From: an uncultured Actinomycetota bacterium
GTDB lineage: Bacteria > Actinomycetota > Actinomycetes > Mycobacteriales > CADCTP01
Direction: 5' to 3'
DNA length: 64,000 nucleotides
Assembly: GCA_963803135.1 (NCBI GenBank)
Contig: CAWDLH010000008.1
Span: 432,281 to 496,280, forward strand
A model generated the notes under the pieces. That model was not told where the DNA came from and did no database searches. It saw only the letters and a program-made list of their open reading frames with translations. This document shows, piece after piece, positions 10,289 through 44,866 of this stretch (position 1 is the first letter of the stretch; each line of letters opens with the position of its first letter). The position numbers were made by a program, and so were the translations under genes.

Positions 10289-10410
10289 GGGGCACCCCTC
10301 CTCTCCATAGGCACCAATGGGTACCTACTTACCAACAGTACCTCACGGGAGCAGGGTGGTTGCGACGCCGCCCTCGACGGGAGGAGCGGCCCGGTACGAG
10401 GAGTGCGGAG

Positions 10411-11354: not shown

Positions 11355-11372
11355 GGGCGCTACGGTCACCGG

Positions 11373-11783
11373 ATGGCGGAGTACGTGGTGCGGCCGGTGG
11401 GCCGGGTCGAATCGTCGCTGCAGAACCGGTCCGACGCGCCCAACCAGGGGGACGAGGGCGCGCCGGACTGCACGATCGCACTCGACCCGGACTACGCGAC
11501 GGCGGTGCGGGACGTCGCGGCCGGCACCGATCTGCTCGTGCTGACCTGGCTGGACCGCGCCAACCGCGACGTGCAGGCGGTGCGCCCGCGCGGCGATCGG
11601 AACCGGCCGGAGACCGGCGTGTTCAGCACCCGCTCCCCGGACCGGCCCAACCCGATCGGCCTGCACCGCGTGACCGTCCTCGCCGTCGACGGCACCCGCC
11701 TTCTCGTCCACGGTCTCGAAGCGCTCGACGGCACCCCCGTCGTCGACCTCAAACCCCCGCTCGGCCCCGTCGCCGAACGCTGA
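11373..11783 (+). CDS. trmO: tRNA (t6A37-N6)-methyltransferase TrmO/TsaA (YaeB family)
   Basis: VRPVGRVES...FSTRSPDRPNPIGLHRVTVLAVDGTRLLVHGLEALDGTPVVDLKP. Confidence 0.9.
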   Translation: MAEYVVRPVGRVESSLQNRSDAPNQGDEGAPDCTIALDPDYATAVRDVAAGTDLLVLTWLDRANRDVQAVRPRGDRNRPETGVFSTRSPDRPNPIGLHRVTVLAVDGTRLLVHGLEALDGTPVVDLKPPLGPVAER

Positions 11784-11786
11784 GGC

Positions 11787-11987
11787 CGCCCGCTCAGGCT
11801 GCGCCCATCGGCGCAGCCGGGCGAGGGCGCGCAGGGCGTCGGCGCTGGAGATCGGCTGGTCGTCCTCCAGCGCGGTCAGCTCCAGCTCGATCCACTCCCG
11901 GACGAGCGTCGAGGTCGGGACGCCTCGGCGCTGCGCCGCGGCCTTGAGTCGCTGGTCGAGCTCGAACGGCACCCGCAGGCGGATCAT
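11787..11987 (-). CDS. Ribbon-helix-helix (CopG/Arc/MetJ-like) protein; 3' end undefined because there is no in-frame stop before 10902
   Basis: MIRLRVPFELDQRLKAAAQRRGVPTSTLVREWIELEL is a textbook strand-helix-helix pattern. Its ATG overlaps the stop of the upstream gene (ATGA at 11984-11987). The frame then reads through, antisense to trmO. Confidence 0.55.
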
Positions 11988-12325
11988 GGACGGGTGTCGG
12001 GGGGTGGGAGGGCAGTGCTGAAGTCGCAGTCGGCGGCGACTCGGAAGCCGGCGGCGTGGAGGCGGTCGATGACGGTGGTGACGAACGCGACGACGGTGTC
12101 GTCGGGGACGTCGCCGGTCGCGTCGATGTCCACTGTGGACGGCCAGTCGAGGTGGTGCTGGCCGCGGGTGCGGTCGGGGTTGCGGCGGACGTCGACGGTG
12201 AAGCCGGGGACCCGGAAGACGTCGAGGTGGTCGGCCGGGCCGAGCAGGTCGGCGACGACCGGGACGAGGGTGGCCGGGTCGGGCGTGTCGACGTAGAGCA
12301 CGCACCACCGGTAGGCGGCGGTCAT
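11984..12325 (-). CDS. 113-aa acidic protein of unknown family; candidate cognate immunity/neutralising partner
   Basis: ATGA overlap with the stop of the upstream toxin-like gene (12322-12325) and with the downstream RHH start. Predicted mixed alpha/beta pattern. I recognise no family. Confidence 0.65.
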   Translation of the reverse strand: MTAAYRWCVLYVDTPDPATLVPVVADLLGPADHLDVFRVPGFTVDVRRNPDRTRGQHHLDWPSTVDIDATGDVPDDTVVAFVTTVIDRLHAAGFRVAADCDFSTALPPPDTRP

Positions 12326-13635: not shown

Positions 13636-13873
13636 CGCGTCCTCCTCGTCCGGATCAAACCTGTGGCGAGGTTAGGGGCGAGCGGGCCCGATCAGACCGA
13701 CGAGTTGCGAACTGTGGACAACGAGCGGAGTGCGTCGACCGCCACCGCGAGCCCGGCCCGCCGCCGGCACTCCCGCCAGCACCGCCGCCAGGCGGCCGGC
13801 GCGGTCGACGGTCCCCGGCGCATCTAGGTTGATCCGACGAGGCGCAGCGGCTGGCGACAGGAAAGGGGTGGCG

Positions 13874-14221
13874 ATGAGTGAGTTGGGGGAGCTGCGGCGG
13901 GCGATGCGGGAGTTCACCGACGAGCGTGGGTGGGCCCCGTTCCATGATCCCAAGTCGGTACTGCTGGCGCTGGTCGGCGAGGTGGGGGAGCTGGCCGAGC
14001 TGCTGCAGTGGTTGCCGGCCGACCGGGTCGCCGAGCTGGCCCGGGGCGAGACGCTGCGCCGGCGGCTCGGCGAGGAGATGTCCGACGTGCTGCTCTACCT
14101 CGTGCTGCTCGCCGACGTCCTGGAGGTGGATCTGGCGGCGGCGGCGGAGGCGAAGCTCGCCGACGCCCGCGTCCGTTACCCCGTCGGGGCGCCGCCGGAC
14201 AGGGAGAACAGGGCGAGGTAG
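13874..14221 (+). CDS. MazG-like nucleotide pyrophosphohydrolase (small all-alpha NTP-PPase)
   Basis: FHDPKSVLLALVGEVGELAELLQW and LGEEMSDVLLYLVLLADVLEVDL (EExxE metal motifs). GAAAGGGG lies before ATG 13874. Confidence 0.85.
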   Translation: MSELGELRRAMREFTDERGWAPFHDPKSVLLALVGEVGELAELLQWLPADRVAELARGETLRRRLGEEMSDVLLYLVLLADVLEVDLAAAAEAKLADARVRYPVGAPPDRENRAR

Positions 14222-15171
14222 CCGCCCGTGAGGGAGCCGAGGGCCACCGCCCCGGACCGCTCGCGTACGCCGGTGACGAAGCCGAACTTCTCGCCCGGCG
14301 CCTGGAAGTCGTGCACCAGGTGGCCATCCGGGTCGTACGCCTGGACCCAGAGCGTGTGCGCCGGCTGCGGCTGGAACCGGTCCGGCAGCGCCCAGACCGC
14401 CTTGCGCAGCGCCGGCCGGCGTGGCAACAGCCAGTCCAGCGTGCGGTCGCGCGGGCTGCCGATCGCGACCCAGATCAGCCCGTCCGAGCCGGTGGAGACG
14501 TTGTCCGGGAAGCCGGGCAGGTTGTCCACGAACACCGAGTCCGTGCCGTCGGCGACCGACCAGCGCCGCAGCCGATACGCCGCGGTCTCCGCCACCACGA
14601 CGAACGATCCGTCCGGGGCGAGCGCCACCCCGTTCGCGAACTGCAGGCCGTCCAGCAGCGTCGTCGTCTCCGCGCGCAGCCCGCGGCGCAGCAGCCGCCC
14701 GGTCCCGGAATGCTGCAGCAGCTCGCCCTTCCAGTGGTCGATCCCGATCCCGCCGGTCGAGTCGCTGAAGTAGATCGTGCCGTCCGCTGCGACCGCGGCG
14801 TTGTTGCAGAACGAGAGCCCGTCGACCAGGGTCTCCACGGCACCCGACTCGACCGAGACCCGCAGCAGCCCACGGCGGGCGTCGCAGACCAGCAGGCCGC
14901 CGTCGGGCAGCCACTCCAGCCCGAGCGGGCGCCCGCCGGTGTCGGCGAGCACGTCGACCCGCCGCCCGTCCGGGGTCAGCCGCAGCACCCGCCCGTCCGC
15001 AACCCCGCACAGCACCCGGCCGGACTCGTCGAACAGCACGTCCTCGGGTCCGCGCCCGATCACGTCGAGCACGGTCAGCGGCGGCACGTCCCGCTCGCTG
15101 CGCGGCCGGCCGGCCCGGGCCGGCGCGGTCGGGGGCTGCCAGACGGCGGGGTCGATCGCGGGGCGCGCCAT
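14176..15171 (-). CDS. SMP-30/gluconolactonase/LRE / strictosidine-synthase-like beta-propeller protein
   Basis: GRGPEDVLFDESGRV..., LGLEWLPDGGLLVCDA, FCNNAAVAADGTIYFSDS, ANGVALAPDGSFVVVAET, PDNVSTGSDGLIWVA. It is the 3' third of the 1572-aa track ORF. Its end overlaps mazG convergently by 46 bp. Confidence 0.85.
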   Translation of the reverse strand: MARPAIDPAVWQPPTAPARAGRPRSERDVPPLTVLDVIGRGPEDVLFDESGRVLCGVADGRVLRLTPDGRRVDVLADTGGRPLGLEWLPDGGLLVCDARRGLLRVSVESGAVETLVDGLSFCNNAAVAADGTIYFSDSTGGIGIDHWKGELLQHSGTGRLLRRGLRAETTTLLDGLQFANGVALAPDGSFVVVAETAAYRLRRWSVADGTDSVFVDNLPGFPDNVSTGSDGLIWVAIGSPRDRTLDWLLPRRPALRKAVWALPDRFQPQPAHTLWVQAYDPDGHLVHDFQAPGEKFGFVTGVRERSGAVALGSLTGGYLALFSLSGGAPTG

Positions 15172-15297
15172 GGCTGCATCCTGCCCCCTCGCCGGCCGCC
15201 CGACGTGGTGCCGGAGGCAGGAGTTGTGTCCGGTTTGCCGACCCATGCGGTGGGTATCCGGCCCGTTGAGGCGTCCTTGACCGTTCCGGAGGTGCAT

Positions 15298-16731
15298 ATG
15301 ACTACCGAGGACGTCCGATTCGGTGGGATGTTCGCCGTCAAGTCGGCCGACGCGCACCTCGAACACGCCGAGCGGGAGGGCAAGCTGCGCCGGGCGATCG
15401 GCCTCGGCGACCTCACCGCCCTCGGCCTCGGCGCGATCATCGGCACCGGAATCTTCGTCATCCTCGGCGAGGCGATCGGCGACGCCGGCCCGGCGATCGT
15501 GCTCTCGTTCATCCTCGCCGGCGTGACGTGCGCCTTCTCCGCGCTGTCGTACAGCGAGCTGGCCTCCTCGATCCCGATCTCCGGCAGCGCCTACACGTAC
15601 GCGTACGCGACGCTCGGGGAGCTGCTGGCCTGGATCATCGGCTGGGACCTGATCCTCGAGTACGGCGTGTCGGTGGCGGCGGTCGCGGTCGGCTGGGGCG
15701 AGTACCTCAACGAGCTGCTGGACACGCTGTTCGGCTTCACGCTGCCGGACGCGATCTCCCAGCCGCCGGGGGAGGGTGGCGTCGTCAACCTGCCCGCCGC
15801 ATTCCTGGTGCTGGCGGTGACGGGGGTGCTCATCCTCGGCGTGAAGGAGAGCGCCAGGGCCAACACGGTCATGGTGCTGATCAAGATCGGCGTGCTGGTG
15901 CTGTTCCTGGTCCTCGCGTTCACCGCGTTCAAGTCCGACAACATCCGCCCGTTCATGCCGCTGGGCTTCAGCGGGGTGAGCACGGCGGCGGCGGCGATCT
16001 TCTTCGCGTACATCGGGTTCGACGCGGTGTCCACCTCGGGCGAGGAGGTGAAGCGGCCGAGCCGGGACCTGCCGCTGGCCATCATCGGCTCGCTGGCGAT
16101 CGCCACCCTGCTCTACTGCCTCGTCGCCCTGGCCGCCACCGGCGCGCTCCCGTGGCAGCAGCTCAACGGTGCGGGCGCGCCGCTCGCGGTCGTGCTGTCC
16201 GAGGGCGTCGGCACGGCCTGGGGCGCCGGCGTGATCGAGATCGGCGCGCTGGTGGCGATCACCAGCGTCGTGCTCACGATCCTCTACGGCCAGACCCGGA
16301 TCATGTACGCGATGTCCCGCGACGGGCTGGTCCCCCGGGCGTTCTCGCGCACCGGCCGGCGGGCCACCCCGGCCGTGTGCACCGCGATGTTCGGCGTGCT
16401 CATCGCCGTGCTGGCCGCGACCGTGCCGCTCGAGATCATCTTCGAGCTGGTCAACATCGGCACACTGTTCGCGTTCGTGATCGTCAACATCGGCGTGATC
16501 GTGCTGCGGCGGACCCGGCCGGACCTGCCGCGCGGCTTCCGGGTGCCGTGGGTCCCGGTGGTGCCGATCATCGGTGCGCTGCTGTGCTTCTACCTCATGA
16601 AAGAGCTGACCGTGCAGACGTGGCTGCGGTTCGTCGTCTGGCTGGCGGTCGGCCTGGTGCTGTACTTCGCGTACGGGCGGCGGCACTCGCGCCTGCAGCA
16701 CGGCGAGACCGTGATCACGGACGAGACCTGA
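15298..16731 (+). CDS. APC-superfamily amino acid permease
   Basis: LGDLTALGLGAIIGTGIFVILGEA..., about 12 TM, 477 aa. GGAGG lies before ATG 15298. Confidence 0.9.
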   Translation: MTTEDVRFGGMFAVKSADAHLEHAEREGKLRRAIGLGDLTALGLGAIIGTGIFVILGEAIGDAGPAIVLSFILAGVTCAFSALSYSELASSIPISGSAYTYAYATLGELLAWIIGWDLILEYGVSVAAVAVGWGEYLNELLDTLFGFTLPDAISQPPGEGGVVNLPAAFLVLAVTGVLILGVKESARANTVMVLIKIGVLVLFLVLAFTAFKSDNIRPFMPLGFSGVSTAAAAIFFAYIGFDAVSTSGEEVKRPSRDLPLAIIGSLAIATLLYCLVALAATGALPWQQLNGAGAPLAVVLSEGVGTAWGAGVIEIGALVAITSVVLTILYGQTRIMYAMSRDGLVPRAFSRTGRRATPAVCTAMFGVLIAVLAATVPLEIIFELVNIGTLFAFVIVNIGVIVLRRTRPDLPRGFRVPWVPVVPIIGALLCFYLMKELTVQTWLRFVVWLAVGLVLYFAYGRRHSRLQHGETVITDET

Positions 16732-30242: not shown

Positions 30243-31484
30243 CTACCCCAGTTGGTCGCGGCGGCGGGTCAGGTAGGCGGTCTCGGCGGTGTTGCCCGCT
30301 AGCTCGATGGCCCTGTCGTACGCCGCGCGCGACTGCTGACTGCAGCCCAGCCGGCGCAGCAGGTCGGCGCGGGTCACGTGGTAGGCGTGATAGCCGGCCA
30401 ACGTGTCCCCGAGCCGGTCGACGGCTGCCAGTGCCACCTCCGGGCCGTCGAGCTCGGCGACGGCGATGGCCCGGTTGAGGGCGACGATCGGCGAGGGGTC
30501 GAGGCGGACGAGCTGGTCGTAGAGGGCAACGACCTGCGACCAGTCGGTGTCGCGTATGTCGTGGGCGGAGGTGTGCACGGCGTTGATCGCGGCGAGGATC
30601 TGGTAGCGACCCGGAGCCACCCCGGCGGCGGCAGCGGCCAGGCGCTCGCGCACCAGCCGATGGCCCTCGGCGACCAGCGCCGCGTCCCAGGCCCCACGGT
30701 CCTGCTCGTCGAGGGCGACCAGTTCGCCGCTCGCCGAAACCCGGGCGGTGCGGCGGGCCTCGGTGAGCAGCATCAGCGCCAGCAGCCCGGCCGCCTCACC
30801 GTCTTCCGGCATCAGGGCCCGGATCAGGCGAGTGAGCCGGATCGCCTCGGCGGTCAGGTCGTGACGTACCGGATCGGTGTCGGGGCCGGTCGCCAGGTAG
30901 CCCTCGTTGAATACGAGGAAGAGAACGGCGAGTACGCCGGAGACGCGGCCCGGGAGATCCGCCGCCGAGGGCACCCGGTAAGGGATGCGAGCCGCCTTGA
31001 TCTTGGCCTTCGCCCGGGTGATCCGCCGCCCCATGGTGGTCTCCTGCACCAGGAAGGCACGGGCGATCTCGGGCACGGTCAGACCGCCGACCATGCGCAG
31101 CGTCAGCGCGATGCGGCTCTCCATCGCGAGCGCCGGGTGACAACAGGTGAAGATCAGCCGGAGCCGCTCGTCGTCGATGGCGCCGAGCGGCTCGGGCGGG
31201 TCGTCGTCGTACACAATCTGAGCCTCCCTCTGCCTGTCGTCGCGCTTGTTCTCACGCCGGATCCGGTCGATGGCCTTGTGGTTGGCGGTGGTGGTCAGCC
31301 AGGCGCCGGGGTTGGGGGGTACGCCGTCGGCCGGCCACCGCTCGACGGCGGTCGCGAACGCCTCGGCTGCCGCCTCCTCGGCGATGTCGAGGTCACCGAA
31401 GCGCCTGGTCAGGGCGGCGACCACCCGGGCCCACTCGTCGTGGTGGGCCCGGGTGACCGCCTCCCCGACGTCGACGTCGCTCAC
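30243..31484 (-). CDS. ECF sigma factor with C-terminal TPR-like extension, ECF42-type (second copy)
   Basis: Collinear with 8460..9689 (HHDEWARVVAALTRRFGDLDIAEEAAAEAFATAVERW, LRLIFTCCHPAL, LTLRMVGGLTVPEIARAFLVQETTMGRRITRAKAKI). GTGA overlap with the DGPF gene. Confidence 0.9.
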   Translation of the reverse strand: MSDVDVGEAVTRAHHDEWARVVAALTRRFGDLDIAEEAAAEAFATAVERWPADGVPPNPGAWLTTTANHKAIDRIRRENKRDDRQREAQIVYDDDPPEPLGAIDDERLRLIFTCCHPALAMESRIALTLRMVGGLTVPEIARAFLVQETTMGRRITRAKAKIKAARIPYRVPSAADLPGRVSGVLAVLFLVFNEGYLATGPDTDPVRHDLTAEAIRLTRLIRALMPEDGEAAGLLALMLLTEARRTARVSASGELVALDEQDRGAWDAALVAEGHRLVRERLAAAAAGVAPGRYQILAAINAVHTSAHDIRDTDWSQVVALYDQLVRLDPSPIVALNRAIAVAELDGPEVALAAVDRLGDTLAGYHAYHVTRADLLRRLGCSQQSRAAYDRAIELAGNTAETAYLTRRRDQLG

Positions 31485-31804
31485 AGGAACGGCCGCACCT
31501 CGATCTTCCGATCGCAGACCTTCGACGCCTCGGCGGCGAGCTTGAGCGCCACATCCAGATCGGGGGCCTCCCACACCCAGACGCCGGCGAGGTACTCCTT
31601 CGACTCCACGAAAGGCCCGTCGCTGACCACCTCCTCATCGCCCCGGTTGTCGATGACCGTGGCCGCGCCGGTGTCCGCGAGTCCGCCCGCGAAGACCCAG
31701 TAGCCCTCGGCGATCAGTCGCTCGTTGAACGCGCTGATGGCAGGCTGCCGGTCCGTGCTACCGGGATTGCTCTTGTCATCGATCACGGAAACCAGGTACT
31801 GCAT
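31481..31804 (-). CDS. YciI-like / DGPF-domain protein (second copy)
   Basis: DGPFVESKEYLAGVWVWEAPDLDVALKLA. GGAGGA RBS. Confidence 0.9.
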   Translation of the reverse strand: MQYLVSVIDDKSNPGSTDRQPAISAFNERLIAEGYWVFAGGLADTGAATVIDNRGDEEVVSDGPFVESKEYLAGVWVWEAPDLDVALKLAAEASKVCDRKIEVRPFL

Positions 31805-31990: not shown

Positions 31991-32251
31991 TCAGCCGGCG
32001 CCGAGGAGGCGGGCGACGAGTGCGGGATCCGCGTCGGGTACGTCGAGGACCTTGGTACGGGTGGTCGCGCCGGCGACCAGGGTGACGGTGCGGCGCCGTA
32101 CCGCGAGGGCGTCGGCGACCGCGGCGAGGGCGGCCTCGGTGGCGCGGCCGTCGACGGCGCGTTCGCGGACCCGGACGACGAGCGCGTCGTCGTGACGGCC
32201 GCCGACGCCCGGGTGCCGCGAGCCGGGGTGGACGTGGATGGTCAGCCGCAT
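31991..32251 (-). CDS. DUF167 (YggU) family protein
   Basis: LTIHVHPGSR...LVVRVRERAVDGRATEAALAAVADALAV...VTLVAGATTRTKVLDV. Confidence 0.85.
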   Translation of the reverse strand: MRLTIHVHPGSRHPGVGGRHDDALVVRVRERAVDGRATEAALAAVADALAVRRRTVTLVAGATTRTKVLDVPDADPALVARLLGAG

Positions 32252-33369
32252 CAGGTCCGCTCGTCGCCCGGCGGGTCCTCGATCGGGGCCACCGGTGGGC
32301 GCTCGGGCGGGCCGGAGGTGTCCGACCAGCGCGGGTTGCGCATGCGGGTGCGCAGTCCGGTCGCGAAGTCCTCGACGGTGGTGACGATCGCGTCGCCGAG
32401 TGAGCGGGCGGCACGCTGCGCGGAGTCGCGGATGTGTGGGTCGCGGGCGGCGTCACCGGCCTGCGTGGCGAGCCGCCGGGCCGAGCTGCCGAGCTCGCGC
32501 ACCGACTCCCGGGCCGAGTCCCAGTCGGCCTGACCGCCGAACCGGCCGCCGGCACCTCCACCCCGCTCCCGCCACCCTCGCTCCGGTCCTCCGGTCCCGC
32601 TGGTTCCGGTCCCGCTGGTTCCGGTCCCGCTGGTTCCGGTCCCGCTGGTTCTGGTCCCGCTGGTGCCGGTCCCGCTGGTGCCAGTCCCGCTGGTGCCAGT
32701 CCCGCTGGTTCCGGTCCCGCTGGTTCCGGTCCCGCTGGTTCCGGTCCCGCTGGTTCCGGTCCCGCTGGTCCCGGTCCCGGCGCTGCTGGTCCCGGTCCCG
32801 CTGGTGTCGGCGCTGCTGGTGCTGGTCCCGCCGGCGCTGCTGGCGGCGGCGCCACCGGTGCCCGGGCTGGTGTCGGCGGGTCCCGCGCCCCCGGCGGGGC
32901 CGGCCGTGCCGGTGCCGGGCGCTTGCGCGCCGGTGTCGCCGGTGCCGGCGTCGGCGGGGCCGGCGGTGGGACGGGGTGGAGTGTCCGCGGCGGTGGCGGC
33001 GGCCCAGGGGTCCTCGAACCCGCGGCCGGCGGGATGGGAGGGGGCCGCCGGGGGCGGTGAGCCCGCGTCGTCGGCGGGGGTCGGCGCGATCCGGTCGGAG
33101 TCCGCGGCACCGGCTCCCTCGCCGGGGCGGCCGGGTGGGCCCGCGGCCGGGTCCGCCCACCGGGCCGGCCCCTGCCGGGGCGAGCCCGACGCCGGATCCC
33201 ACGAGGCCGGATCGGGGTCGGACGCGGTGGTCGGGTCGGGGGTGGTGGGGTCGGAAGGGGTACGGGCCGCGTCGGGGGAGAGGTGCACGCGCAGCGCCTC
33301 GCCGAACTCCTCGAAGGTGCGGCCGACCTCCTGCCACAGGGCACGCTGGTCCCGGGGCGTCTCGCTCAT
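32251..33369 (-). CDS. Low-complexity protein with a (GTGTS)n core between conserved helical N- and C-termini
   Basis: GAGGAGGAAC lies before ATG 33369. The middle is ...SGTGTSGTGTSGTGTS... The C-terminus is RELGSSARRLATQAGDAARDPHIRDSAQRAARSLGDAIVTTVEDFATGL. Its stop overlaps the DUF167 start by 1 nt. Confidence 0.7.
   Translation of the reverse strand: MSETPRDQRALWQEVGRTFEEFGEALRVHLSPDAARTPSDPTTPDPTTASDPDPASWDPASGSPRQGPARWADPAAGPPGRPGEGAGAADSDRIAPTPADDAGSPPPAAPSHPAGRGFEDPWAAATAADTPPRPTAGPADAGTGDTGAQAPGTGTAGPAGGAGPADTSPGTGGAAASSAGGTSTSSADTSGTGTSSAGTGTSGTGTSGTGTSGTGTSGTGTSGTGTSGTGTSGTGTSGTRTSGTGTSGTGTSGTGTSGTGGPERGWRERGGGAGGRFGGQADWDSARESVRELGSSARRLATQAGDAARDPHIRDSAQRAARSLGDAIVTTVEDFATGLRTRMRNPRWSDTSGPPERPPVAPIEDPPGDERT
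32588..32800. repeat. 15-bp tandem repeat (plus strand GGTCCCGCTGGTTCC and variants), about 13 copies, inside the CDS
   Basis: Read directly. Encodes GTGTS units on the minus strand. Confidence 0.9.
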
Positions 33370-33448
33370 CGTTCCTCCTCGACCGGCGCGCGCCCGGCGG
33401 CGCGGCCTCCGGCTCGACATACCCAACGACCGGCACCCCACCGTCCGT

Positions 33449-36064
33449 TCACGCGGCGCCGAACGCGTTGAAGGCGCAGCAGGTCACGAACGCGCGCGGC
33501 TCCTCCGGGTCCAGCGCGGAGCGCGCGGCGAACAGCGCCTCCGCCAGAGTCGCTCCGCGCCGTATCGACTTGTGCAGCGCGCACATCAGCGGCACCACGT
33601 CCCAGTCCGGTACGACGATGGCGCTCGCCACGAGGCCGGCCGTACCCCGCGCCAGCAGGGCGGAGACGAAGCCGAGCGTCTCGTTCCCCTCGTACCCCAC
33701 CTCGGAGCCGGACTCGCACGCCGCCAGCACGACCCGGTGCGGGGCCGGTCCGCGCAGTTCCAGTTCGTGCAGTGTCAGCGGTCCGTCGGCGAGCAGCAGC
33801 GAGGAGAAGATCGGGTTGTCCGGCCGCACCCGGCCGTGACAGGCCAGGTGCGCCAGCGACGCGCGGGACAGCGCGGACACCACCGCGGCCGCGACCGACG
33901 TGGGCGGCCGCAGCACGATCGCCTCCGGATGGATGCCGGCCAGCGCGGTCACCTCCGCCGACCCGCCGGGCACGTCCGGGCCGGCCGCCAGCACGACGTC
34001 ATCGCCGACCGGCCGGGCCAGCGCGCTGCGTTGCCACCATGCGGCGGACGGGGCCACCGAGACCGGCGCGGTGTGCAGCGCCGCCCACGGCACCCGCTGC
34101 AGCTCGCCGACCGGCACCACGACGAGGCCGGGATGCTCCGCGAGCCCCAGCGGGTCGAGCAGGAGCGCGGTGAGCTTCCGCAGCCCGGTCCGGGCCGAGG
34201 CCAGCGCCGCCGGCTGCGGGCGCCCTCGGGCCAGCCGCCGCAGCGCGAACAGCAGCGACCGGATCTCGAACAGCACCGCAGCGACCGGACCGAGGTGGAC
34301 CAGCCGGGTCCGGCCCGGCTCGAGCACCGCCGCGATCACCTCTGCGTCGAGCACGTCGTACTCGACCAACACCCGGCCGGCGAGCGTGGTCCGAAGCGCC
34401 GCCGTCGACAGCCGGGCCGGCCTGGCCGTCGGGCCGGACGCCCGCAGCCACGAGCTGCGCCGGATGCGGGCCTCCAGCTCGGCCTGGCGCGTCGCCAGCT
34501 CGGCCTGCCGGTCCCGGGCCGGCCCCGCTCGCAGCTCGGCGGCCGCCGCCCGCATGGCGGCGAGCTCCCCGTCGAGGTCCGCGTCCACCGCACCGGCCGG
34601 ACCCACCGGGTGCAGCTCGACCGCCGATCCCGCCGCGGCCCGGGTGCGCTCCATCCACTCCAGCGCGCGCGCCGGTGAACCGTCTCGGACCACCGCCGCC
34701 AGCCCCAGCCGGCCCAGCTCGGCGCCCTGCCCGGACGCCAGCACCCGCAGCTCGTACGAGGCCAGCGAGGACCTGTGCCGGGCGAGGTCGGCGAGACCGG
34801 CCCGGCAGTGCCGCAGCACGGTCGCGTCGTCCCGGGCCGCCCGTCCGGCCAGGGCACCGGCCACCCGCCCGCGCAGGCGCACCAGCACGGGCGCGCCCCT
34901 CGACAGCTCCAGAGCCGTCGTCCAGGCCGACCTCGCCGGGCCGCTCCGACCGGCGGCCGCCGCGACCCGGCCGGCCAGGAGGTAGGCGTGCACCGCGGCC
35001 GGCATCCGGGCCCGTCGCAGGACAGCCGCGGCCCGGCGCGCCGCCGTCACGTCGGACGGCAGCCCATGCCCGGTCCGCAGCCGAGCCTCCAGCGCGACCA
35101 GGTCGGCCCGGGCCGCCCAGCTCGCCCGGCGTTGCCGCCGGAACTGGGCCGCCACCTCGGCCGCGGCGGCGGCGGCCGCCGTCGGGTTGCCGTCCAGCAG
35201 TAGCAACTGCGCCGCCCGCAGCTGCGCCTCGGCGGCCATCAGCGGCATCCCGGACAGGTCGAGCAGGCGGACGGCGGTCCGGCTCTGCTGCTGCGCCTCC
35301 GGCAGCAGCCGCAGCGCGACCAGCGCATCGGTGAGCTCGACGTACAGCTCGCCGAGCGGCAGCCCGGCGACCTCCCACAGCCTGGCCGCCTCGTCGAACA
35401 TCGCCAGGCCGTCGGTCAGCCGCCCGGCCTGCACCGTCGCCGCCGCGCGGGACTCCGCGATCGCCGCGGCGTAGGTGGGCACGACGCCGGCGGCCGCCTC
35501 GGCAGCCTGGTCGAGCCACCCGAGTGCGATCTGTGGCCGGCCGCGCTCGCTCTCGATGACGCCGAGGTTGTTGGCCGCCTTGGCCCGCACGTCCCGCGGT
35601 ACGCCTGGGCTGGCGAGCACCCGTCGGTACAGCCGCGCCGCGTCCTCCAGCCGGCCCTGGTTCAGGTGCAGCGCGCCCTGCTGGGCGGCCAGCTCGGCGG
35701 CCATCCCCGGCGGGACGAACGCGGCCGCGGCGGTGAAGTCGTGCTGTGCCGCCGACGGGCGACCCAGCTCGTGGTTGACCGCGCCCCGGGTGACCAGGAC
35801 CTCGCCGAGCCGCTCGGCCAGCCCCTCCCGGCGGGCGATCCGCGCGGCCTCGTCGAGCAGCCGCTTGGCCCGCTTCCCGTCGAGCCGCGTGCGGTGATAC
35901 CAGGCCTCCGCCCGCAGCGCAGCGACCAGCGCTTCGGGTGGCCCGGACCGGCGGGCCACACCGACGAGGGCGACCGCGGCGGGACCGGCTCCCTCCGGGT
36001 CGGCAACGACCTTGGCATATGCCGCCGAGGCGAGTATCAGGATCTCAGAGTCGTGCTCGTTCAT
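33449..36064 (-). CDS. TPR-repeat / CHAT-domain (caspase-like) protease, cytoplasmic
   Basis: 871 aa. The N-terminal ~560 aa are helical TPR-like repeats. The C-terminal CHAT domain has the His-Cys dyad in SLAHLACHG and VVLAACESG. No signal peptide. Confidence 0.9.
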   Translation of the reverse strand: MNEHDSEILILASAAYAKVVADPEGAGPAAVALVGVARRSGPPEALVAALRAEAWYHRTRLDGKRAKRLLDEAARIARREGLAERLGEVLVTRGAVNHELGRPSAAQHDFTAAAAFVPPGMAAELAAQQGALHLNQGRLEDAARLYRRVLASPGVPRDVRAKAANNLGVIESERGRPQIALGWLDQAAEAAAGVVPTYAAAIAESRAAATVQAGRLTDGLAMFDEAARLWEVAGLPLGELYVELTDALVALRLLPEAQQQSRTAVRLLDLSGMPLMAAEAQLRAAQLLLLDGNPTAAAAAAAEVAAQFRRQRRASWAARADLVALEARLRTGHGLPSDVTAARRAAAVLRRARMPAAVHAYLLAGRVAAAAGRSGPARSAWTTALELSRGAPVLVRLRGRVAGALAGRAARDDATVLRHCRAGLADLARHRSSLASYELRVLASGQGAELGRLGLAAVVRDGSPARALEWMERTRAAAGSAVELHPVGPAGAVDADLDGELAAMRAAAAELRAGPARDRQAELATRQAELEARIRRSSWLRASGPTARPARLSTAALRTTLAGRVLVEYDVLDAEVIAAVLEPGRTRLVHLGPVAAVLFEIRSLLFALRRLARGRPQPAALASARTGLRKLTALLLDPLGLAEHPGLVVVPVGELQRVPWAALHTAPVSVAPSAAWWQRSALARPVGDDVVLAAGPDVPGGSAEVTALAGIHPEAIVLRPPTSVAAAVVSALSRASLAHLACHGRVRPDNPIFSSLLLADGPLTLHELELRGPAPHRVVLAACESGSEVGYEGNETLGFVSALLARGTAGLVASAIVVPDWDVVPLMCALHKSIRRGATLAEALFAARSALDPEEPRAFVTCCAFNAFGAA

Positions 36065-36130
36065 CTGGGCCCGCCATCACCATCGGATCCGAAGCCTACG
36101 GGCGACCGCCAACACAGGGTAGGGAGTCAC

Positions 36131-37477
36131 ATGACAGACGAGCCGGACGGCACCCCGGTCGAGCGGCGCCTCCAGGACCTGCTGCGGGACGTGCTGACCG
36201 TGCGCCGGCACACCACCGACTTCGGCCGGACCTGGGAGGACCGGGCCTGGCGGCGCGAGGTGCTCGAGCGGTCCCGCTCGAGCCGGACGCTGCTTCCCGA
36301 GCTGCCGCAGGTCGACATCCTCGAGCGGCCCGAGGAGGACTATCTCGTCGGCGTGGGGGAGCTGCTCATCCGCGCCGACGCGTACGACGGGCTGGCCCAG
36401 CGGCTGGCCGAGGCCGCGGGCTTCACGGCGGAGCCGATGGAATGCCTCCGCGGTCGGGTCATCCGCCTGCTCCGGCCCGGTGCCGGCGCCGGCGAGCTCG
36501 CCGACGCGGCCGACCGGATGCGCGAGCGCGGCGTGCGGGTCACGTTCAACTTCGTGCCGCCGATGGCCGTGGTGATCAAGTCCCGGGGCGGTCCTGAGCC
36601 GGCCGCCCGCAGCTGGCCGCCGCATCCCCCGGCCATCTCGGCAGGTCGGGTCCGGGTCGCGATCGTCGACACCGGGGTGGCCGAACAGAAGCGCGGCGAC
36701 GGCTGGCTCGACGGTCTGGCCGACGCCGGCAACATCGACCTGCTCTACTCCAATCCGGATGCGGCTCCCGCCGACCGACGGCTCGACGCGGCGGGCGGGC
36801 ACGGTACCTCGGTGGCGGGGATCATCCAGCACGAGGCCCCGTCGGCCACCCTGGCCATGCACGCGGCGGTGCCGCCGGACGGCTCGGCGCTGGAGTCGGC
36901 GATCGCCTGCGCGATGGTCGGCGCGGTCCAGGAAGGCTTCGACGCCGATCAGGACGTCGTGCTCAACCTCTCCCTCGGCACGACGACCACGGACGACGAG
37001 CCGCCGGTGGCGCTGCAGGCCGCGCTCGACGTGATCGAGGAGATGGCGGCCGAGCAGCGCCGGGACGTGCTGGTCGTGGCCGCGGCCGGCAACTACGGCG
37101 ACACCCGGCCGGTGTGGCCGGCGGCGCTGCGCGGAGTGGTCGCGGTCGGCGCGCTGACCCAGCAGATGACCCCGGCGCCGTGGTCCAGTCACGGTGCGTG
37201 GGTGGACTGCGCAGTGCTCGGCGACGGCGTCCTGACGATCTACGTGGAGGGCACCGAGGACCCGTTCTTCGACACCGATCCGGACACGTTCGGGCCGGAC
37301 TCGTTCGCGCTGCAGTTCGGGACGTCGTTCGCGGCTCCGCAGGTGGCGGGCCGGGTGGCGTACGTGGCGGAGGAGGAGAACGTGAGCCTGCGGCAGGCGC
37401 TCGCCCTGGTGCTCGCCGGCGCCAGCCGGATCCCGGACTTCGGTCGGGTCGTGGCGATCCAGTCGCCGGTCGGCTGA
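36131..37477 (+). CDS. S8 (subtilisin-like) serine peptidase without a signal peptide, with a ~185-aa unknown N-terminal domain
   Basis: Catalytic D in VAIVDTGV, H in GGHGTSVAGI, oxyanion N in VLNLSLG, S in GTSFAAPQVAG. The N-terminus MTDEPDGTPVERRLQD is hydrophilic. AGGGAG RBS. Confidence 0.9.
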   Translation: MTDEPDGTPVERRLQDLLRDVLTVRRHTTDFGRTWEDRAWRREVLERSRSSRTLLPELPQVDILERPEEDYLVGVGELLIRADAYDGLAQRLAEAAGFTAEPMECLRGRVIRLLRPGAGAGELADAADRMRERGVRVTFNFVPPMAVVIKSRGGPEPAARSWPPHPPAISAGRVRVAIVDTGVAEQKRGDGWLDGLADAGNIDLLYSNPDAAPADRRLDAAGGHGTSVAGIIQHEAPSATLAMHAAVPPDGSALESAIACAMVGAVQEGFDADQDVVLNLSLGTTTTDDEPPVALQAALDVIEEMAAEQRRDVLVVAAAGNYGDTRPVWPAALRGVVAVGALTQQMTPAPWSSHGAWVDCAVLGDGVLTIYVEGTEDPFFDTDPDTFGPDSFALQFGTSFAAPQVAGRVAYVAEEENVSLRQALALVLAGASRIPDFGRVVAIQSPVG

Positions 37478-37520
37478 CCGTGGCCGTGCCAGGTGGCGGT
37501 TCGGCGCGCACCATGGAGAG

Positions 37521-37937
37521 GTGATCCCCCTCTCGCTGGCCCGCCGGCTGGGCGCGGCCGGGCTGGTCTGGGAGCCGGCGCCCGGCGACCGGTTCTGCAT
37601 CCCGGACAAGGACATGGACGAGGACGTGTTCGTGCTGTCCACGATGACCATCGAGGTGCACGACCTGCCCGGCCGCACGGTGATCGGCTTCAACGGGACC
37701 ACCGAGTGGGCGCTCGACGACGTGGACAAGGACGCCGCGCTCTGGCTGCCCCGGGAGGACCAGCTGCGCGCCGCGCTCGGCGACGCGTTCCGCCGGCTGG
37801 AGCGGGCGGGCGACCGCTGGCGGGTGGTGGCGACGATCTGGGGCGAGACGGTCGAGTTCACCGGCGCCGATCCCGAGGCCGCGTACGGAGACGCCCTGCT
37901 GCACCTGCTCTCCGCCGGCCCGGACATCCCCGGGTAG
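37521..37937 (+). CDS. 138-aa hypothetical protein downstream of the S8 peptidase
   Basis: GTG start 43 bp after the S8 stop, same strand, high GC3. No family recognised. Confidence 0.55.
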   Translation: MIPLSLARRLGAAGLVWEPAPGDRFCIPDKDMDEDVFVLSTMTIEVHDLPGRTVIGFNGTTEWALDDVDKDAALWLPREDQLRAALGDAFRRLERAGDRWRVVATIWGETVEFTGADPEAAYGDALLHLLSAGPDIPG

Positions 37938-40469: not shown

Positions 40470-41240
40470 ATGACTCTCGCCGACGACTTCCGCCGCCTGC
40501 AGGCCGAGGGCGTGCTCGTCCTGCCCAACGCCTGGGACGCTGCGTCCGCCCGCCTGGTCGAGCGGGCCGGCGCCGCCGCGGTCGCCACCACCAGCGGCGC
40601 GGTGGCCTGGAGCCTCGGGGTGCCCGACGGCGACCGGCTGCCGCTGGAGCTGCTGGCCGGAGCGGTCGAGCGGATCGCCGCGGCCGTCGCCGTGCCGGTG
40701 ACCGCCGACGTCGAGTCGGGTGGTCCGGACGTGGCCGCGACCGTGCGGGCGGTGCTGGCCGCGGGCGCGGTCGGGATCAACCTCGAGGACGGCGGCGGTC
40801 CGGTCGAGCCGCACCGGGACCGGGTCGCCGCCGCCCGCGACGCCGGCGGGCGGGAGCTGTTCGTCAACGCGCGCACCGACCTCTACCTGTTCGGCATCGG
40901 CGAGCCGGACGACCGGCTGGCCGAGACCATCGCCCGCGCGGGGGTCTACGCGGAGGCCGGCGCGGACGGGATCTTCGTCCCGGGAGTGACCGACCCGGAG
41001 GTGCTGCGGACGCTGGTCGCGGAGATCCCGCTGCCGGTCAACGTGCTGGCCGGGCCGGGCGCGCCGGCGGTGGACGAGCTGGCCGCGGTCGGGGTGCGCC
41101 GGGTCAGCGTCGGCACCGGGCTGGCCGAGGTGGCCTATGCGGCGGCCGACCGGGCCGCGCGCGAGCTGCTGGCCACGGGGACCTACCGGGCGCTCGAGGG
41201 CGGCCTGGACTACGGCGACCTGCAGAAGCTGCTCGGCTAG
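40470..41240 (+). CDS. Isocitrate lyase / PEP mutase superfamily protein (methylisocitrate-lyase / carboxyPEP-mutase-like)
   Basis: VLPNAWDAASARLVE..., PVTADVESG..., GINLEDG..., ADGIFVPG. Confidence 0.9.
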   Translation: MTLADDFRRLQAEGVLVLPNAWDAASARLVERAGAAAVATTSGAVAWSLGVPDGDRLPLELLAGAVERIAAAVAVPVTADVESGGPDVAATVRAVLAAGAVGINLEDGGGPVEPHRDRVAAARDAGGRELFVNARTDLYLFGIGEPDDRLAETIARAGVYAEAGADGIFVPGVTDPEVLRTLVAEIPLPVNVLAGPGAPAVDELAAVGVRRVSVGTGLAEVAYAAADRAARELLATGTYRALEGGLDYGDLQKLLG

Positions 41241-41911
41241 CTGGTGCAGGAGGTCACGCCGCCGCGGGCACCCTGGTTGAAGGCGTCGATCCGCTGGCGC
41301 GCGTCGCCGTGGTCGCTCTCCTTGGTCCAGGGGAAGTCGTCGGCGACCGCGACCAGCGTCTGCTGCAGCTCCTGGATGTCGCCCCGCTCGAACTGCAGCA
41401 GCCCGCGGTCGGCGGCGCCGAAGAGGATGGCGCCGGCGAAGCAGTCGGCCTGCAGCTCGGCTGCCACCGAGACCTGGTCGGCCCGCAGCCGGGCCTGGAT
41501 CGCGTGGCCCCACTCGTGCGCGATGATCAGGTAGACCCACGCGTCGCCGATCTTCCGGTAGCCGGCGGCCATGAGGTTCTCGTCCCAGGCGAGGAAGTCC
41601 TGCGACGGGCAGTAGAACGCGTTGAACGGCACCGACGGCTGGCCGCCGCAGCTGGGGCCGTCCTCGCCGACGTAGCCGCCCCTGACCTGGGGCGGAATGT
41701 AGGACTGGCGGAAGTCCTCCGGGAAGACCTGCCGCCAGAACGCGTCGGTCGCGCCGACCGCGCCCCGCTCGTCCGCGTCGAGGTCGTCCCGGTTCACCGA
41801 GTCGAGCGGGTTGTCGCTGGTCGAGCCGCCGCCAGAGCTCCCGCTGTCGACCGAGACCGCGCACCCCGCGAGCAGCAACACTGCGGCCACCGCGGCCAGC
41901 AGCGCGCGCAC
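41237..41911 (-). CDS. Lipoprotein, YpfJ-type neutral zinc metallopeptidase
   Basis: Lipobox signal (V)RALLAAVAAVLLLAGC if the start is GTG 41911. IIAHEWGHAIQ (HExxH) and ELQADCFAG. The frame stays open upstream through a (PAT)n array to an ATG near 42289, so a longer form cannot be excluded. Confidence 0.75.
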   Translation of the reverse strand: MRALLAAVAAVLLLAGCAVSVDSGSSGGGSTSDNPLDSVNRDDLDADERGAVGATDAFWRQVFPEDFRQSYIPPQVRGGYVGEDGPSCGGQPSVPFNAFYCPSQDFLAWDENLMAAGYRKIGDAWVYLIIAHEWGHAIQARLRADQVSVAAELQADCFAGAILFGAADRGLLQFERGDIQELQQTLVAVADDFPWTKESDHGDARQRIDAFNQGARGGVTSCTS

Positions 41912-41936
41912 CGGTGCGGCCCGGCCCGGCGCGGCC

Positions 41937-42180
41937 GGGGTGGCCGGGAAGGCTGGGGTGGCCGACGCGGCGGAGGTGGCCGGGGTGGCCGGGGTGGCTG
42001 GGGTGGCCGGGGTGGCCGGGGTGGCCGGGGTGGCCGGGGTGGCCGGCGCGGCGGGGGTGGCCGGGGTGGCCGGGGTGGTTGGGGTGGCCGGGGTGGCCGG
42101 CGCGGCGGGGGTGGCCGAGCTGGCCTGGGTGGCCGGGGTGGCTGGGGTGGCCGGGGTGGCTGGGGTGGCCGGGGTGGTTG
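41937..42180. repeat. 9-bp tandem array GGGGTGGCC (about 25 units, with interruptions)
   Basis: Read directly. Lies between the metallopeptidase start and the divergent DMT gene. Encodes (PAT)n in the metallopeptidase frame. Confidence 0.9.
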
Positions 42181-42430
42181 CACCGGCGTCCGCGTGGTCG
42201 GCGGGGCGGGTCACGGTCCGGCCGTCCGGCCGGGCGGCCGCGCGGGCGCCGGCGAGGGAGGCGTGGCGGGCGGCGGGGCGGACGCGCATGCGCCCGGCGT
42301 ACCCCGGAACGGGCCGGTGCGACACGCGCAACCGGTTCCCGCCGGAAACCGGGGGACACCGGGCGGAACAAACCGGCAGAGGTCGGGGTCGAGGATCTAG
42401 GCAGAGCGTTCCCGGACGGAGAGGACACCG

Positions 42431-43336
42431 ATGAGCCGGCGCGGCTGGATCCTGTTCGCGGCGATGTCGGTGATCTGGGGCGTGCCGTACCTGATGATCA
42501 AGGTGGCGGTCGAGGAGCTGACACCGGCGACGCTGGTGCTGTTCCGGTGCGGGATCGCGACCGTGCTGCTGCTGCCGATCGCGCTGGTCCGGGGCCAGAT
42601 CCGCCCGCTGCTGCCGCGCTGGAAGCCGCTGCTGGCGTACACGGCGGTGGAGATCTGCGGGCCCTGGCTGCTGCTCGGGTTCGCCGAGCAGCGCCTTTCT
42701 AGCTCCCTGACCGGGCTGCTCATCGCCGGGGTGCCGCTGGTCGGCGCGCTGCTGGCCCGCGTCGGCCCGCACGGGGAGCGGCTCGGCGGCCGCCGGCTGG
42801 CCGGGCTGCTGGTCGGGCTGGCCGGGGTAGGCGCGCTGGTCGGCTTCGAGTCCGGCGCCGGCGACGGCCGGGCGATCGTGGCGGTCGCCCTCGCCGTGAT
42901 CGGGTACGCGCTGGGCCCGGCGATCCTCAGCCGCACCCTGTCCGACCTGCCCTCGCTCGGGGTGGTCGCGGCGTCGCTGGCCATCTCGACCGTGGCGTAC
43001 CTGCCGGCCGGGATCGTCCAGGCGCCCGGTGCCTGGCCGTCGGCGCGGGTCACGCTGGCCGTGCTCGGCCTGGCGGTGATCTGCACGGCGGTCGCGTTCC
43101 TGGTGTTCTTCGAGCTCATCGCCGAGGTCGGCCCGGCCCGGTCGACGGTGATCACATACGTGAACCCGGCGGTGGCGGTCCTGCTCGGCGTGCTGATCCT
43201 GGACGAGGTGTTCACCGCGACGACCGCGGTCGGGTTCGTGCTGATCCTGCTCGGCTCGGTGCTCGCGACCTCCCGCAGGGCGCCGGCCGGGCCGGTGGGC
43301 GCGCTGGAGCCGGAGGCCGCGCGGTCCGCCGGTTGA
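42431..43336 (+). CDS. DMT-superfamily (EamA) transporter
   Basis: Ten TM, two EamA halves (WGVPYLMIKVAVEEL...). Confidence 0.9.
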   Translation: MSRRGWILFAAMSVIWGVPYLMIKVAVEELTPATLVLFRCGIATVLLLPIALVRGQIRPLLPRWKPLLAYTAVEICGPWLLLGFAEQRLSSSLTGLLIAGVPLVGALLARVGPHGERLGGRRLAGLLVGLAGVGALVGFESGAGDGRAIVAVALAVIGYALGPAILSRTLSDLPSLGVVAASLAISTVAYLPAGIVQAPGAWPSARVTLAVLGLAVICTAVAFLVFFELIAEVGPARSTVITYVNPAVAVLLGVLILDEVFTATTAVGFVLILLGSVLATSRRAPAGPVGALEPEAARSAG

Positions 43337-43414: not shown

Positions 43415-44866
43415 TCAGGTCGGCGACGGCGTCGCGCTGGACGGGGAGACGCTGGGCCGGGGGGCCGAGCTGGTGGCGCTCGACGCGGCGGCCGGCGACG
43501 GGGCCGGCTGGGTGGTGCTGGGCGGCGCCGTGCTGCTGGCCGCGCTGCTCGTCGGCGCCGACGAGGTGCCCGGGGCGGCCGAGGAGGTAGCCGGCGCGCC
43601 GGTGCCGGACGCCGAGCCGCTGGGCTCCTGGCTGCCGGCCGGGCTGCTGCCGGCACCGGGCGAGCTGGTCCCCGGCGATGTGGTTCCCGGCGAGCTGGCC
43701 CCGCCCGAGCTGGTGTCCGGCGACGTCGCCCCGGAGGACGCGCCGCCCGGCGAGGTCGTGCCCGAGGACGCGCCGCCCGGCGAGGTCGTGCCGGAGGAGG
43801 CACTACCTGGCGACGTGGTGCCCGGCGAGCTGGCACCCGGCGAGCTGGCACCCGGCGAGGAGGTCCCGGGCGTGCTGGTCCCGGGCGTGCTGGTCCCGGC
43901 CGTGCTGGTCCCGGGCGTGCTGGTCCCGGGCGTGCTGGTCCCCGGCGTCGCCTCGCCCGGCGTGCCGCCGTTCTGCGTCGACCCCGGCCGGGCGTGGCTG
44001 CGTGGCGGGGTGTCCGCCGTCGGCGCCACCGGCGGCGGCGGCGACCCGTCCGGCATCGCGTCTCCGACCGGAGTGACGCCGGTGCCGGGCACCCCGACGG
44101 GCACCGGCGGCAGCGCGGCGGTCGCCGGCCCGGTCGCCACCCGGACCGCCCCGGCGTACCCGCTCAGCCACATCGTGGTGACCTCGACGAACTCGCCCGG
44201 CTGCGGTGCCTGCACGATCTTGCCGTCGCCCAGGTACATCGCGACGTGGTGCACGGTCGACAGGTCGCTCGGGTCGTACGCCCAGAACAGCAGGTCGCCG
44301 GGCAGCAGGTCGGGCAGGTCGACCGCGGTGCCGACCCGCGCCTGCTCCCGGGACGTGCGCGGCAGCGCGACCCCGGCCGTCGCGTACGAGCGCTGCACCA
44401 GCCCCGAGCAGTCGTACGCGTCGGGCCCGGTCGCGCCCCACATGTACGGCTTGCCGACCTGGGCCAGCGCGTACCTGATCGCGACCGACACGGCCTGCGG
44501 AGCGGCCAGCGTGGTGCTGCTGCCGAGCGCGGACGGCGGGACGGCGACCGCGGACGGCGAGCCGGCGGCGGTGGTCCGGGTGACGGCCGAGCTGGCCCGG
44601 GGCCGGGCGGCTGTGGTCCTGCGGTCCTTCTCCCTGCTCAGCAGCAGGTCGAGGGAGCGGCGCTGCTCGGCGGGGTCGCGCACGGTCCAGCCGGGCCAGT
44701 CGAGCCCCGAGCCTTCGGGTTGGGCGGCCAACCGCATGACGGTCGGCGCCGGTCGGTGGTCGGAGGTGGCGGCACCGAGGACCGCCATCGTGCCGACCGA
44801 GATGGCGCCCACCGCGGTCCAGCGGCAGAGCGCGCACCAGCCGGGGAACCCGATGCTGCGCTGCAA
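43415..44866 (-). CDS. Secreted NlpC/P60 cell-wall hydrolase with a long Ser/Thr/Pro/Gly-rich C-terminal tail
   Basis: GKPYMWGATGPDAYDCSGLVQRSY (catalytic Cys), HHVAMYLGDG (His). The tail has (TSTPG)n-type 15-bp repeats at about 43620-43960. TTG start per the track. Confidence 0.85.
   Translation of the reverse strand: MQRSIGFPGWCALCRWTAVGAISVGTMAVLGAATSDHRPAPTVMRLAAQPEGSGLDWPGWTVRDPAEQRRSLDLLLSREKDRRTTAARPRASSAVTRTTAAGSPSAVAVPPSALGSSTTLAAPQAVSVAIRYALAQVGKPYMWGATGPDAYDCSGLVQRSYATAGVALPRTSREQARVGTAVDLPDLLPGDLLFWAYDPSDLSTVHHVAMYLGDGKIVQAPQPGEFVEVTTMWLSGYAGAVRVATGPATAALPPVPVGVPGTGVTPVGDAMPDGSPPPPVAPTADTPPRSHARPGSTQNGGTPGEATPGTSTPGTSTPGTSTAGTSTPGTSTPGTSSPGASSPGASSPGTTSPGSASSGTTSPGGASSGTTSPGGASSGATSPDTSSGGASSPGTTSPGTSSPGAGSSPAGSQEPSGSASGTGAPATSSAAPGTSSAPTSSAASSTAPPSTTQPAPSPAAASSATSSAPRPSVSPSSATPSPT

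Follow-up and report, generated by a model that had tools for sequence, protein, structure and literature searches.

The DNA analysed here is a stretch of 64,000 nucleotides from an uncultured Actinomycetota bacterium (contig CAWDLH010000008.1, positions 432,281 to 496,280; hereafter the window), in which two protease genes are arranged back to back. One encodes a protein with a TPR-like superhelix and a CHAT caspase-like protease domain (33449..36064, minus strand; the CHAT protein), and the other encodes a signal-less, pro-subtilisin-like peptidase of family S8 (36131..37477, plus strand; the S8 protein). The CHAT and S8 genes are a genuine co-inherited unit. On balance, this pair appears to be the protease half of an actinobacterial four-gene cassette composed of a TPR-CHAT protease, a cytoplasmic pro-subtilisin, a sigma factor of the extracytoplasmic function (ECF) type and a small protein termed C3; the cassette would correspond to the genomic context of the sigma factor group ECF54 and would serve sigma factor control. 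Because the pair lies beside a sigma factor in most relatives, in an ECF54 context, the locus is probably a switch in gene regulation and not a new defence system.

The CHAT protein consists of 871 amino acids and is predicted to be cytoplasmic. The Pfam CHAT model covers residues 628-851 (E = 1.9e-24), and TPR_16 and TPR_12 match residues 124-193 weakly. In the AlphaFold2 model, which has a predicted local distance difference test score (pLDDT) of 86.4, DSSP assigns about 27 helices within residues 2-538. These helices build an N-terminal all-helical superhelix (approximately residues 1-545; 34430..36064, minus strand), which is presumed to act as a sensor or a scaffold. An alpha/beta fold starts at residue 564 and belongs to the CHAT protease domain (approximately residues 555-871; 33452..34402, minus strand). 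Because the motifs LACHG and AACESG are located at residues 740-744 and 781-786, the catalytic dyad is assigned to His743 and Cys783. Both residues are invariant in 35 CHAT homologs, so that the intact dyad proposed in the original prediction of this locus is confirmed; in the homolog alignment and in the structural model, from which Met1 was omitted, the numbering is one lower and the dyad is 742/782. No transmembrane segment was found in the CHAT protein, since the sole peak of the Kyte-Doolittle profile (1.79, at residue 800) falls on a strand in the core of the CHAT domain. Foldseek matches the model to human separase, DdvA (19% identity) and Csx29, the Csx29 structures 8eey_B and 7y9x_B being matched with E of about 1e-13. 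When a profile of the CHAT family is compared with solved structures, DdvA is the closest (8rot_B, E = 3.5e-6), followed by Csx29 (E = 2e-3). The CHAT homologs are uniform in length (about 871 residues) and share 50-60% identity across families.

The S8 protein consists of 448 amino acids. Pfam Peptidase_S8 matches residues 174-417 (E = 1.3e-22), and the catalytic domain (residues 173-448; 36647..37474, plus strand) carries the complete catalytic set that had been noticed before. Among 67 homologs, H224, N321 and S399 are invariant and D180 is conserved in at least 90%. The AlphaFold2 model built on these 67 homologs has a pLDDT of 93.5 and reveals four consecutive parts. Helices 10-35 and 38-54 form an N-terminal hairpin (residues 10-54; 36158..36292, plus strand), an addition specific to this family that is present but weakly conserved throughout it. 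The hairpin is followed by a beta-alpha-beta-beta-alpha-beta domain at residues 61-141, with strands 61-64 and 71-81, helix 87-95, strands 99-102 and 110-114, helix 120-132 and strand 138-141, which resembles a subtilisin prodomain of the I9 type (annotated as residues 60-141; 36308..36553, plus strand). A linker (residues 142-172; 36554..36646, plus strand) then leads to the catalytic domain. The best Foldseek match is unautoprocessed pro-subtilisin E (3whi, 427-430 aligned columns), and further matches are a lanthipeptide protease precursor (9ekq) and ProN-Tk-SP (3afg). The alignments to these three pro-subtilases span 414-430 columns and thereby extend beyond the catalytic domain alone. The N-terminal region, which had been regarded as a domain of no recognised family, is thus in the predicted structure a classical subtilisin prodomain that follows a family-specific hairpin.

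The prodomain of subtilisins acts both as an intramolecular chaperone and as an inhibitor. In the S8 protein it precedes an intact Asp/His/Ser triad and an oxyanion-hole Asn, the arrangement that characterises a subtilisin-type zymogen. The first 60 residues are strongly hydrophilic; because their highest 19-residue Kyte-Doolittle mean is only -0.35, neither a Sec nor a Tat signal is recognised in this N-terminus by hydropathy, and the start is conserved across homologs. The earlier assignment of S8 as signal-less is thereby supported against the concern about a cryptic Sec or Tat signal, and the protein is predicted to stay inside the cell. Because a prodomain precedes the catalytic domain and there is no export signal, the S8 protein looks like a cytoplasmic zymogen in its modelled architecture. 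Its linker is a candidate processing site, marked by conservation and by a dip in pLDDT, which drops to 66 across residues 141-150. In the linker motif vIKsxGGPEPa, Lys150 is invariant and G154 is conserved in at least 90% of 67 sequences, the Gly153/Gly154 pair being conserved. Secreted pro-subtilisins such as subtilisin E/BPN', Tk-SP and the lanthipeptide proteases have the prodomain, the S8 fold and the full catalytic set in common with the S8 protein. In contrast to them, the S8 protein has no signal peptide, carries the N-terminal hairpin and Lys150 in the linker, and is obligatorily paired with a CHAT protein.

This pairing emerges from a survey in which the S8 alignment was scanned against one genome per GTDB species and the retrieved loci were searched by tblastn. 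The survey comprises 40 loci of the S8 subfamily, three of them obtained through protein look-ups and 37 through the scan; individual loci are denoted below by L numbers where they must be told apart. A full-length CHAT ortholog (42-90% identity) lies directly adjacent to the S8 gene in 39 of the 40 loci, L030 being the sole locus without a CHAT gene, and the two genes are divergent in 36 of these 39 loci and co-directional in 3. The carriers include Cellulomonas, Pseudonocardia, Micromonosporaceae, Jiangellaceae, Nocardioidaceae, Geodermatophilaceae, Streptosporangiaceae, Kineosporiaceae and Vallicoccus, and the genomic contexts are quite different. Consistently, a reverse look-up has shown that all three CHAT homologs from long contigs have a divergent S8 gene. 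The pairwise identities of the CHAT and S8 proteins co-vary as well (Mantel r = 0.72, a value reached by 0 of 2000 permutations). Within the cassette, no other genes are linked as tightly as these two. Because of this adjacency, the co-variation and the invariant catalytic sites, it is reasonable to read the two proteases as a cascade or as a sensor plus a zymogen. The part of the original prediction that described them as a functional unit thus stands, while the part that assigned this unit to defence or regulated cell death has found no support.

The divergent spacer between the two genes is 66 bp long in the window (36065..36130) and contains no match to a sigma-70-like promoter or a terminator. 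In most relatives the spacer is likewise short, mostly 42-125 bp according to rough start-codon estimates. No conserved promoter or operator was found in 31 divergent spacers beyond a Shine-Dalgarno-like GGAGG before the S8 gene.

The other half of the cassette was identified by clustering the open reading frames (ORFs) across the loci, which yielded a sigma factor family and the C3 family, and hidden Markov models (HMMs) were built from both. Searches with these HMMs find the sigma factor and C3 within 10 kb of the protease pair in 28 of the 40 loci. The two genes also lie beside seven more distant CHAT-S8 pairs from Saccharopolyspora, Actinokineospora, Solirubrobacterales and metagenome-assembled genomes, and they are present in all seven further locus groups that were reached from CHAT or C3 homologs and carry the protease pair. 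The earlier conclusion that the proteases have no known partner, and that their effector or substrate would consequently be new, does not agree with this recurrent ECF sigma factor and C3, which fit the ECF54 context. The sigma factor is of the ECF type with Sigma70_r2 and r4 domains, and its closest solved relatives are SigE, SigH and RpoE. C3 is a protein of about 150 amino acids; according to the called gene models, the last 4-56 nt of the sigma factor gene are shared with the C3 gene. Overlapping genes are typical of operons that encode a sigma factor and its anti-sigma factor. In C3, a helical segment at the N-terminus is joined through a variable linker, in which one Arg is invariant, to a C-terminal beta domain that is matched by CarboxypepD_reg in 5 of 15 members. 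The C3 family has more than 900 members and no Pfam family of its own.

The surroundings of the cassette vary among the relatives. In five Cellulomonas loci (L013, L014, L019, L020 and L026; around positions 7000-12500), the whole CHAT-S8-sigma-C3 cassette is inserted in the highly conserved cluster of ribosomal protein and RNA polymerase genes, where it separates rpoB/rpoC-rplL-rplJ from rplA-rplK-nusG-secE. In L084 (10628-14192), a gene for a Peptidase_C14 (caspase) domain with HEAT repeats and a Trypsin_2 gene lie between the CHAT and sigma factor genes, so that four different proteases are encoded around one ECF sigma factor. Genes for secreted lytic enzymes often adjoin the cassette (L084, 15432-16130; L085, 12017-13066; the P0194 locus; L096, 2130-4988); they encode PG_binding+lysozyme and CHAP+PG_binding proteins, an alpha-lytic protease and a protein with fungalysin M36, CarboxypepD_reg and F5/8-C domains. 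These enzymes may represent the regulon of the sigma factor. In L087 and L088, the sigma-C3 pair stands alone without a protease gene within 8 kb. There (7403-8477 and 12021-16477), it is located 3.5 kb from GAP1/DO-GTPase2 genes, which belong to NTP-dependent conflict systems that have been described.

ECF54 is an actinobacterial group without an anti-sigma factor or a clear regulator (Casas-Pastor et al., PMC7826278). A 2022 review of non-canonical ECF sigma factors states in its section 3.3 that carboxypeptidase, subtilase and CHAT domain proteins are conserved in the ECF54 context and that proteolysis has been proposed as the regulator, crediting Huang et al. 2015 and Casas-Pastor et al. 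2021 there (PMC8999054). This set matches the cassette exactly, and hence the association is already known at the bioinformatic level: in actinobacteria, a CHAT protein, a subtilase and a carboxypeptidase(-regulatory)-like protein are found beside an ECF sigma factor that has no canonical anti-sigma factor. The CHAT and S8 proteins of the window are orthologous to the members of the cassette, with 35-54% and 42-72% identity, respectively, and the orthologs of the window CHAT protein include those encoded beside sigma factors in L004-L040, L084-86, L090 and L092-98. The window locus thus possesses the CHAT protein and the subtilase of the ECF54 context and differs from it in having neither the ECF54 sigma factor nor a gene for a CarboxypepD_reg-like or carboxypeptidase-like protein. 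What is added here to the published proposal is the zymogen architecture of the pro-subtilisin, the separase-like fold of the CHAT protein and C3 as a candidate anti-sigma factor.

Several points weigh against the assignment of the window pair to a sigma-controlling cassette. When all six frames of the full 64 kb were searched with the HMMs, neither C3 (best E = 2.6) nor the cassette sigma factor was found, the best match of these searches (E = 0.057) being to an unrelated sigma factor of the ECF42 type. Because no sigma factor or C3 gene is present in these 64 kb, the link to a sigma factor is indirect for the window genome. Moreover, 12 of the 40 loci lack the sigma factor and C3 within 10 kb; L001 and L002, the closest relatives of the window (88% and 54% S8 identity, respectively), are sigma-less over this distance, as are nine other loci. 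Profile searches against the PDB and Pfam detect no anti-sigma domain in C3 and reveal only similarity to beta-sandwiches. The published proposal for ECF54 concerns degradation of the sigma factor itself and not of an anti-sigma factor, so that control might run in either direction. Finally, the neighbouring sigma factors are assigned to ECF54 by their matching context and not by an ECF-group model, and the association within the ECF54 cassette is itself a bioinformatic one.

The ECF42-type sigma factor of the window (30243-31574, minus strand) is encoded 2 kb from the pair and contains Sigma70_r2/r4_2, DUF6596 and TPR regions. It pairs with a YCII/DGPF protein (31481-31804, minus strand) and forms with it a separate, known module. 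This sigma factor was rejected as a partner of the proteases: it is paired with a YCII protein of its own, the syntenic locus L001 lacks it, and it is not similar to the sigma factor of the cassette. ORF clustering of the sigma-less loci identified no third conserved gene, and the clusters that were found there (ribosomal, RNA polymerase, Opp transporter, dapE, arcA and htrA genes) result from synteny between related genomes. In the window genome, the sigma factor and C3 are probably encoded elsewhere, as in at least one other lineage (L087 and L088), or have been lost; alternatively, the proteases are used differently in the window lineage.

If the pair serves sigma factor control, a mechanism with three steps can be envisaged. 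The TPR superhelix would sense a cytoplasmic signal and turn on the His/Cys site of the CHAT domain, as in separase and Craspase. The CHAT protease and the subtilase zymogen would then act in series; in the likeliest order, the CHAT protease would cut the linker at Lys150 and so free the S8 protein from its inhibitory prodomain. Both proteases would finally remove C3, a probable anti-sigma factor or sigma-bound substrate, thereby releasing the ECF sigma factor. Separase and metacaspases are specific for basic residues, and Lys150 in the S8 linker and the invariant Arg in the C3 linker are candidate cleavage sites for a basic-specific protease. A more definite version of this mechanism can be put forward only tentatively: in a two-step cytoplasmic cascade, the CHAT protease would cleave the zymogen at the Lys150 linker, and the freed subtilase, or both proteases, would cleave C3, as a soluble anti-sigma factor, at its linker Arg. 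Activation of the ECF sigma factor would then be independent of the membrane and parallel to the Craspase-Csx30-RpoE pathway, and in the window lineage the cascade would be uncoupled from the sigma factor locus and perhaps directed to a different target.

TPR-CHAT proteases that act on anti-sigma factors have been described in the Craspase-Csx30-RpoE and DdvA-DdvS systems (PMC11506125). Craspase of type III-E CRISPR (Cas7-11, Csx29 and Csx30/Csx31 with RpoE) contains a TPR-CHAT protein with the same overall fold and the same His/Cys dyad as the window CHAT protein, and the relatives of the window pair share with it the linkage to an ECF sigma factor and to a small protein that may be a cleaved, sigma-binding substrate. 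However, the Csx29 model NF041237 scores only 14.9 bits against a cut-off of 300 on the window CHAT protein. The window locus, surrounded by DUF167, a (GTGTS)n protein, a 138-aa ORF and zwf, contains neither Cas7-11 nor a CRISPR array, and the only nearby tandem repeat is a coding repeat of 15 bp; the activator cannot be a target RNA. In addition, the obligate second protease, S8, has no counterpart in Craspase. DdvA likewise links a TPR-CHAT protease to ECF sigma factor control; among solved CHAT proteins it is the nearest in sequence, and its fold is a top match. In DdvA, a zinc-binding anti-sigma domain, a transmembrane helix and the TPR-CHAT part are united in one protein that faces the periplasm. 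In contrast, the window CHAT protein is soluble, has no anti-sigma domain, its helical superhelix beginning at residue 2, and is encoded by a separate gene paired with a subtilase. In the SAVED-CHAT/PCaspase/PC-sigma cascade of a type III-B CRISPR system (Steens et al. 2024), the CHAT protein reportedly activates a second protease, which acts on a sigma/anti-sigma pair. The window locus differs from this cascade in having a subtilase instead of a caspase, no SAVED domain or cyclic-oligoadenylate sensor and no CRISPR context.

A rather unlikely alternative to sigma factor control is that the two proteins of the window lineage form a sigma-independent zymogen-activation pair, which would control a different target through limited proteolysis, for instance during development, in stress proteolysis or in protein turnover, like the intracellular subtilisins of Bacillus. 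The window, L001, L002 and Vallicoccus soli (L003) all have the pair and neither the sigma factor nor C3 within 10 kb (in the window over 64 kb), and in these genomes purifying selection still acts on the pair, whose active sites are intact and whose CHAT identity is 72-90%. However, no alternative third gene is conserved in the sigma-less loci, and the sigma-C3 pair can sit away from the proteases. Because the sigma-C3 pair can be unlinked in this way, its absence from 10-64 kb does not show that it is absent from the genome.

An anti-phage or regulated cell-death module, in which the TPR-CHAT protein would sense infection and activate the subtilase to destroy essential proteins or to activate a new effector, is improbable. 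TPR-CHAT relatives do have a role in Craspase, and a defence island is under DdvA control (PMC11506125). The two additional protease genes of L084 between CHAT and sigma factor, the cell-wall hydrolases or the alpha-lytic protease beside the sigma factor in three loci and the unlinked sigma-C3 pair near conflict-system genes could also be read in this way. The S8 protein has weak IetS-like matches, but these amount to just 25 bits in PADLOC, reflect generic S8 similarity and are not accompanied by an IetA partner; consistently, the NCBIfam model NF042956 scores 15.9 against a cut-off of 900, and there is no adjacent ATPase gene. PADLOC reports no defence system, contrary to the defence role suggested earlier, and PADLOC and NCBIfam searches with four local proteins return generic S8 matches only. 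The score of the Csx29 model is far below its cut-off. Of the genes adjoining the pair, none was identified as a gasdermin, STAND NTPase or CRISPR gene, the flanking ORFs giving no Pfam or PADLOC match to a gasdermin, and there are no relatives of the CHAT protein in viral contigs and no plasmid matches of the S8 protein. Housekeeping genes flank the pair (gltX/leuCD, zwf and rpoBC/rplKA/nusG), and the uniform length of about 871 residues together with 50-60% identity across families points more to a conserved regulator than to an arms-race gene.

The same flanks bear on the suggestion that the locus is a small inserted island, which is not upheld. No tRNA, flanking repeat, integrase or GC anomaly was found at the locus; the GC content of the window is high, about 72-79%, without a compositional break around the locus, and in other genomes the flanking genes have housekeeping functions. 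The window, L001 and L002 have the same position next to zwf in common. It is hardly credible that the two genes are chance neighbours and S8 an ordinary subtilase that is secreted by means of a cryptic signal: although its best NCBIfam match is a secreted or membrane-bound mycosin of the type VII secretion system (79.5 bits against a cut-off of 278.75), its conserved start and strongly hydrophilic N-terminus argue against export, and the adjacency in all but one of the surveyed loci, in different contexts, effectively refutes chance.

The ORFs of the CHAT, S8 and 138-aa proteins are all located where the original prediction had placed them. The 138-aa ORF (37521..37937, plus strand) starts 43 bp past the S8 stop codon, and its product has no Pfam, NCBIfam or PADLOC match. 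At 50% identity, its unnamed family comprises 386 representative clusters. The L002 locus has a glyoxalase gene between S8 and the 138-aa gene, which is still directly upstream of zwf, and a 45%-identical homolog occurs in an unrelated context beside DUF6308 and SNase-like genes (L091). The 138-aa protein was rejected as a partner of the proteases, as among the loci it occurs only in L001 and L002, stays with zwf and has homologs in unrelated contexts. A low-complexity (GTGTS)n protein is encoded on the other side of the pair (32251-33441, minus strand), beside DUF167, and contains about 16 tandem units of 15 bp at 32530-32895. Its C-terminal region of about 100 amino acids is conserved (78% identity in L001 and 59% in L002). 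Its occurrence is limited to a close clade, and it was likewise rejected as a partner. Both proteins, which had been named as possible substrates or effectors, are clade-specific neighbours. Repeat-rich proteins look common in the window genome: two further ORFs contain long tracts of low complexity, of which one at 41237-42772 (minus strand) has a (PATPAT)n stretch and appears to correspond to a Zn_peptidase gene called in L001, and the other at 43415-44866 (minus strand) has an S/T/P/G-rich stretch and an NlpC/P60-like motif.

The window locus is a sigma-less member of a cassette that has already been noted bioinformatically, and what makes it interesting is that its mechanism can be tested, not that the kind of system is new. 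ECF54 is a group of ECF sigma factors without a known regulator, for which the sole published idea is control by neighbouring proteases. This idea is sharpened here by a probable cytoplasmic zymogen subtilase with a conserved basic linker, a presumed sensor CHAT protease similar to separase and Craspase, and a C3 protein that is translationally coupled to the sigma factor. If the proposed cascade is true, it would activate ECF sigma factors by a membrane-independent route that was not known before. If confirmed, it would also provide a rare example of a regulatory intracellular subtilase and, after Craspase and DdvA, a third independent instance in which TPR-CHAT proteases control ECF sigma factors.

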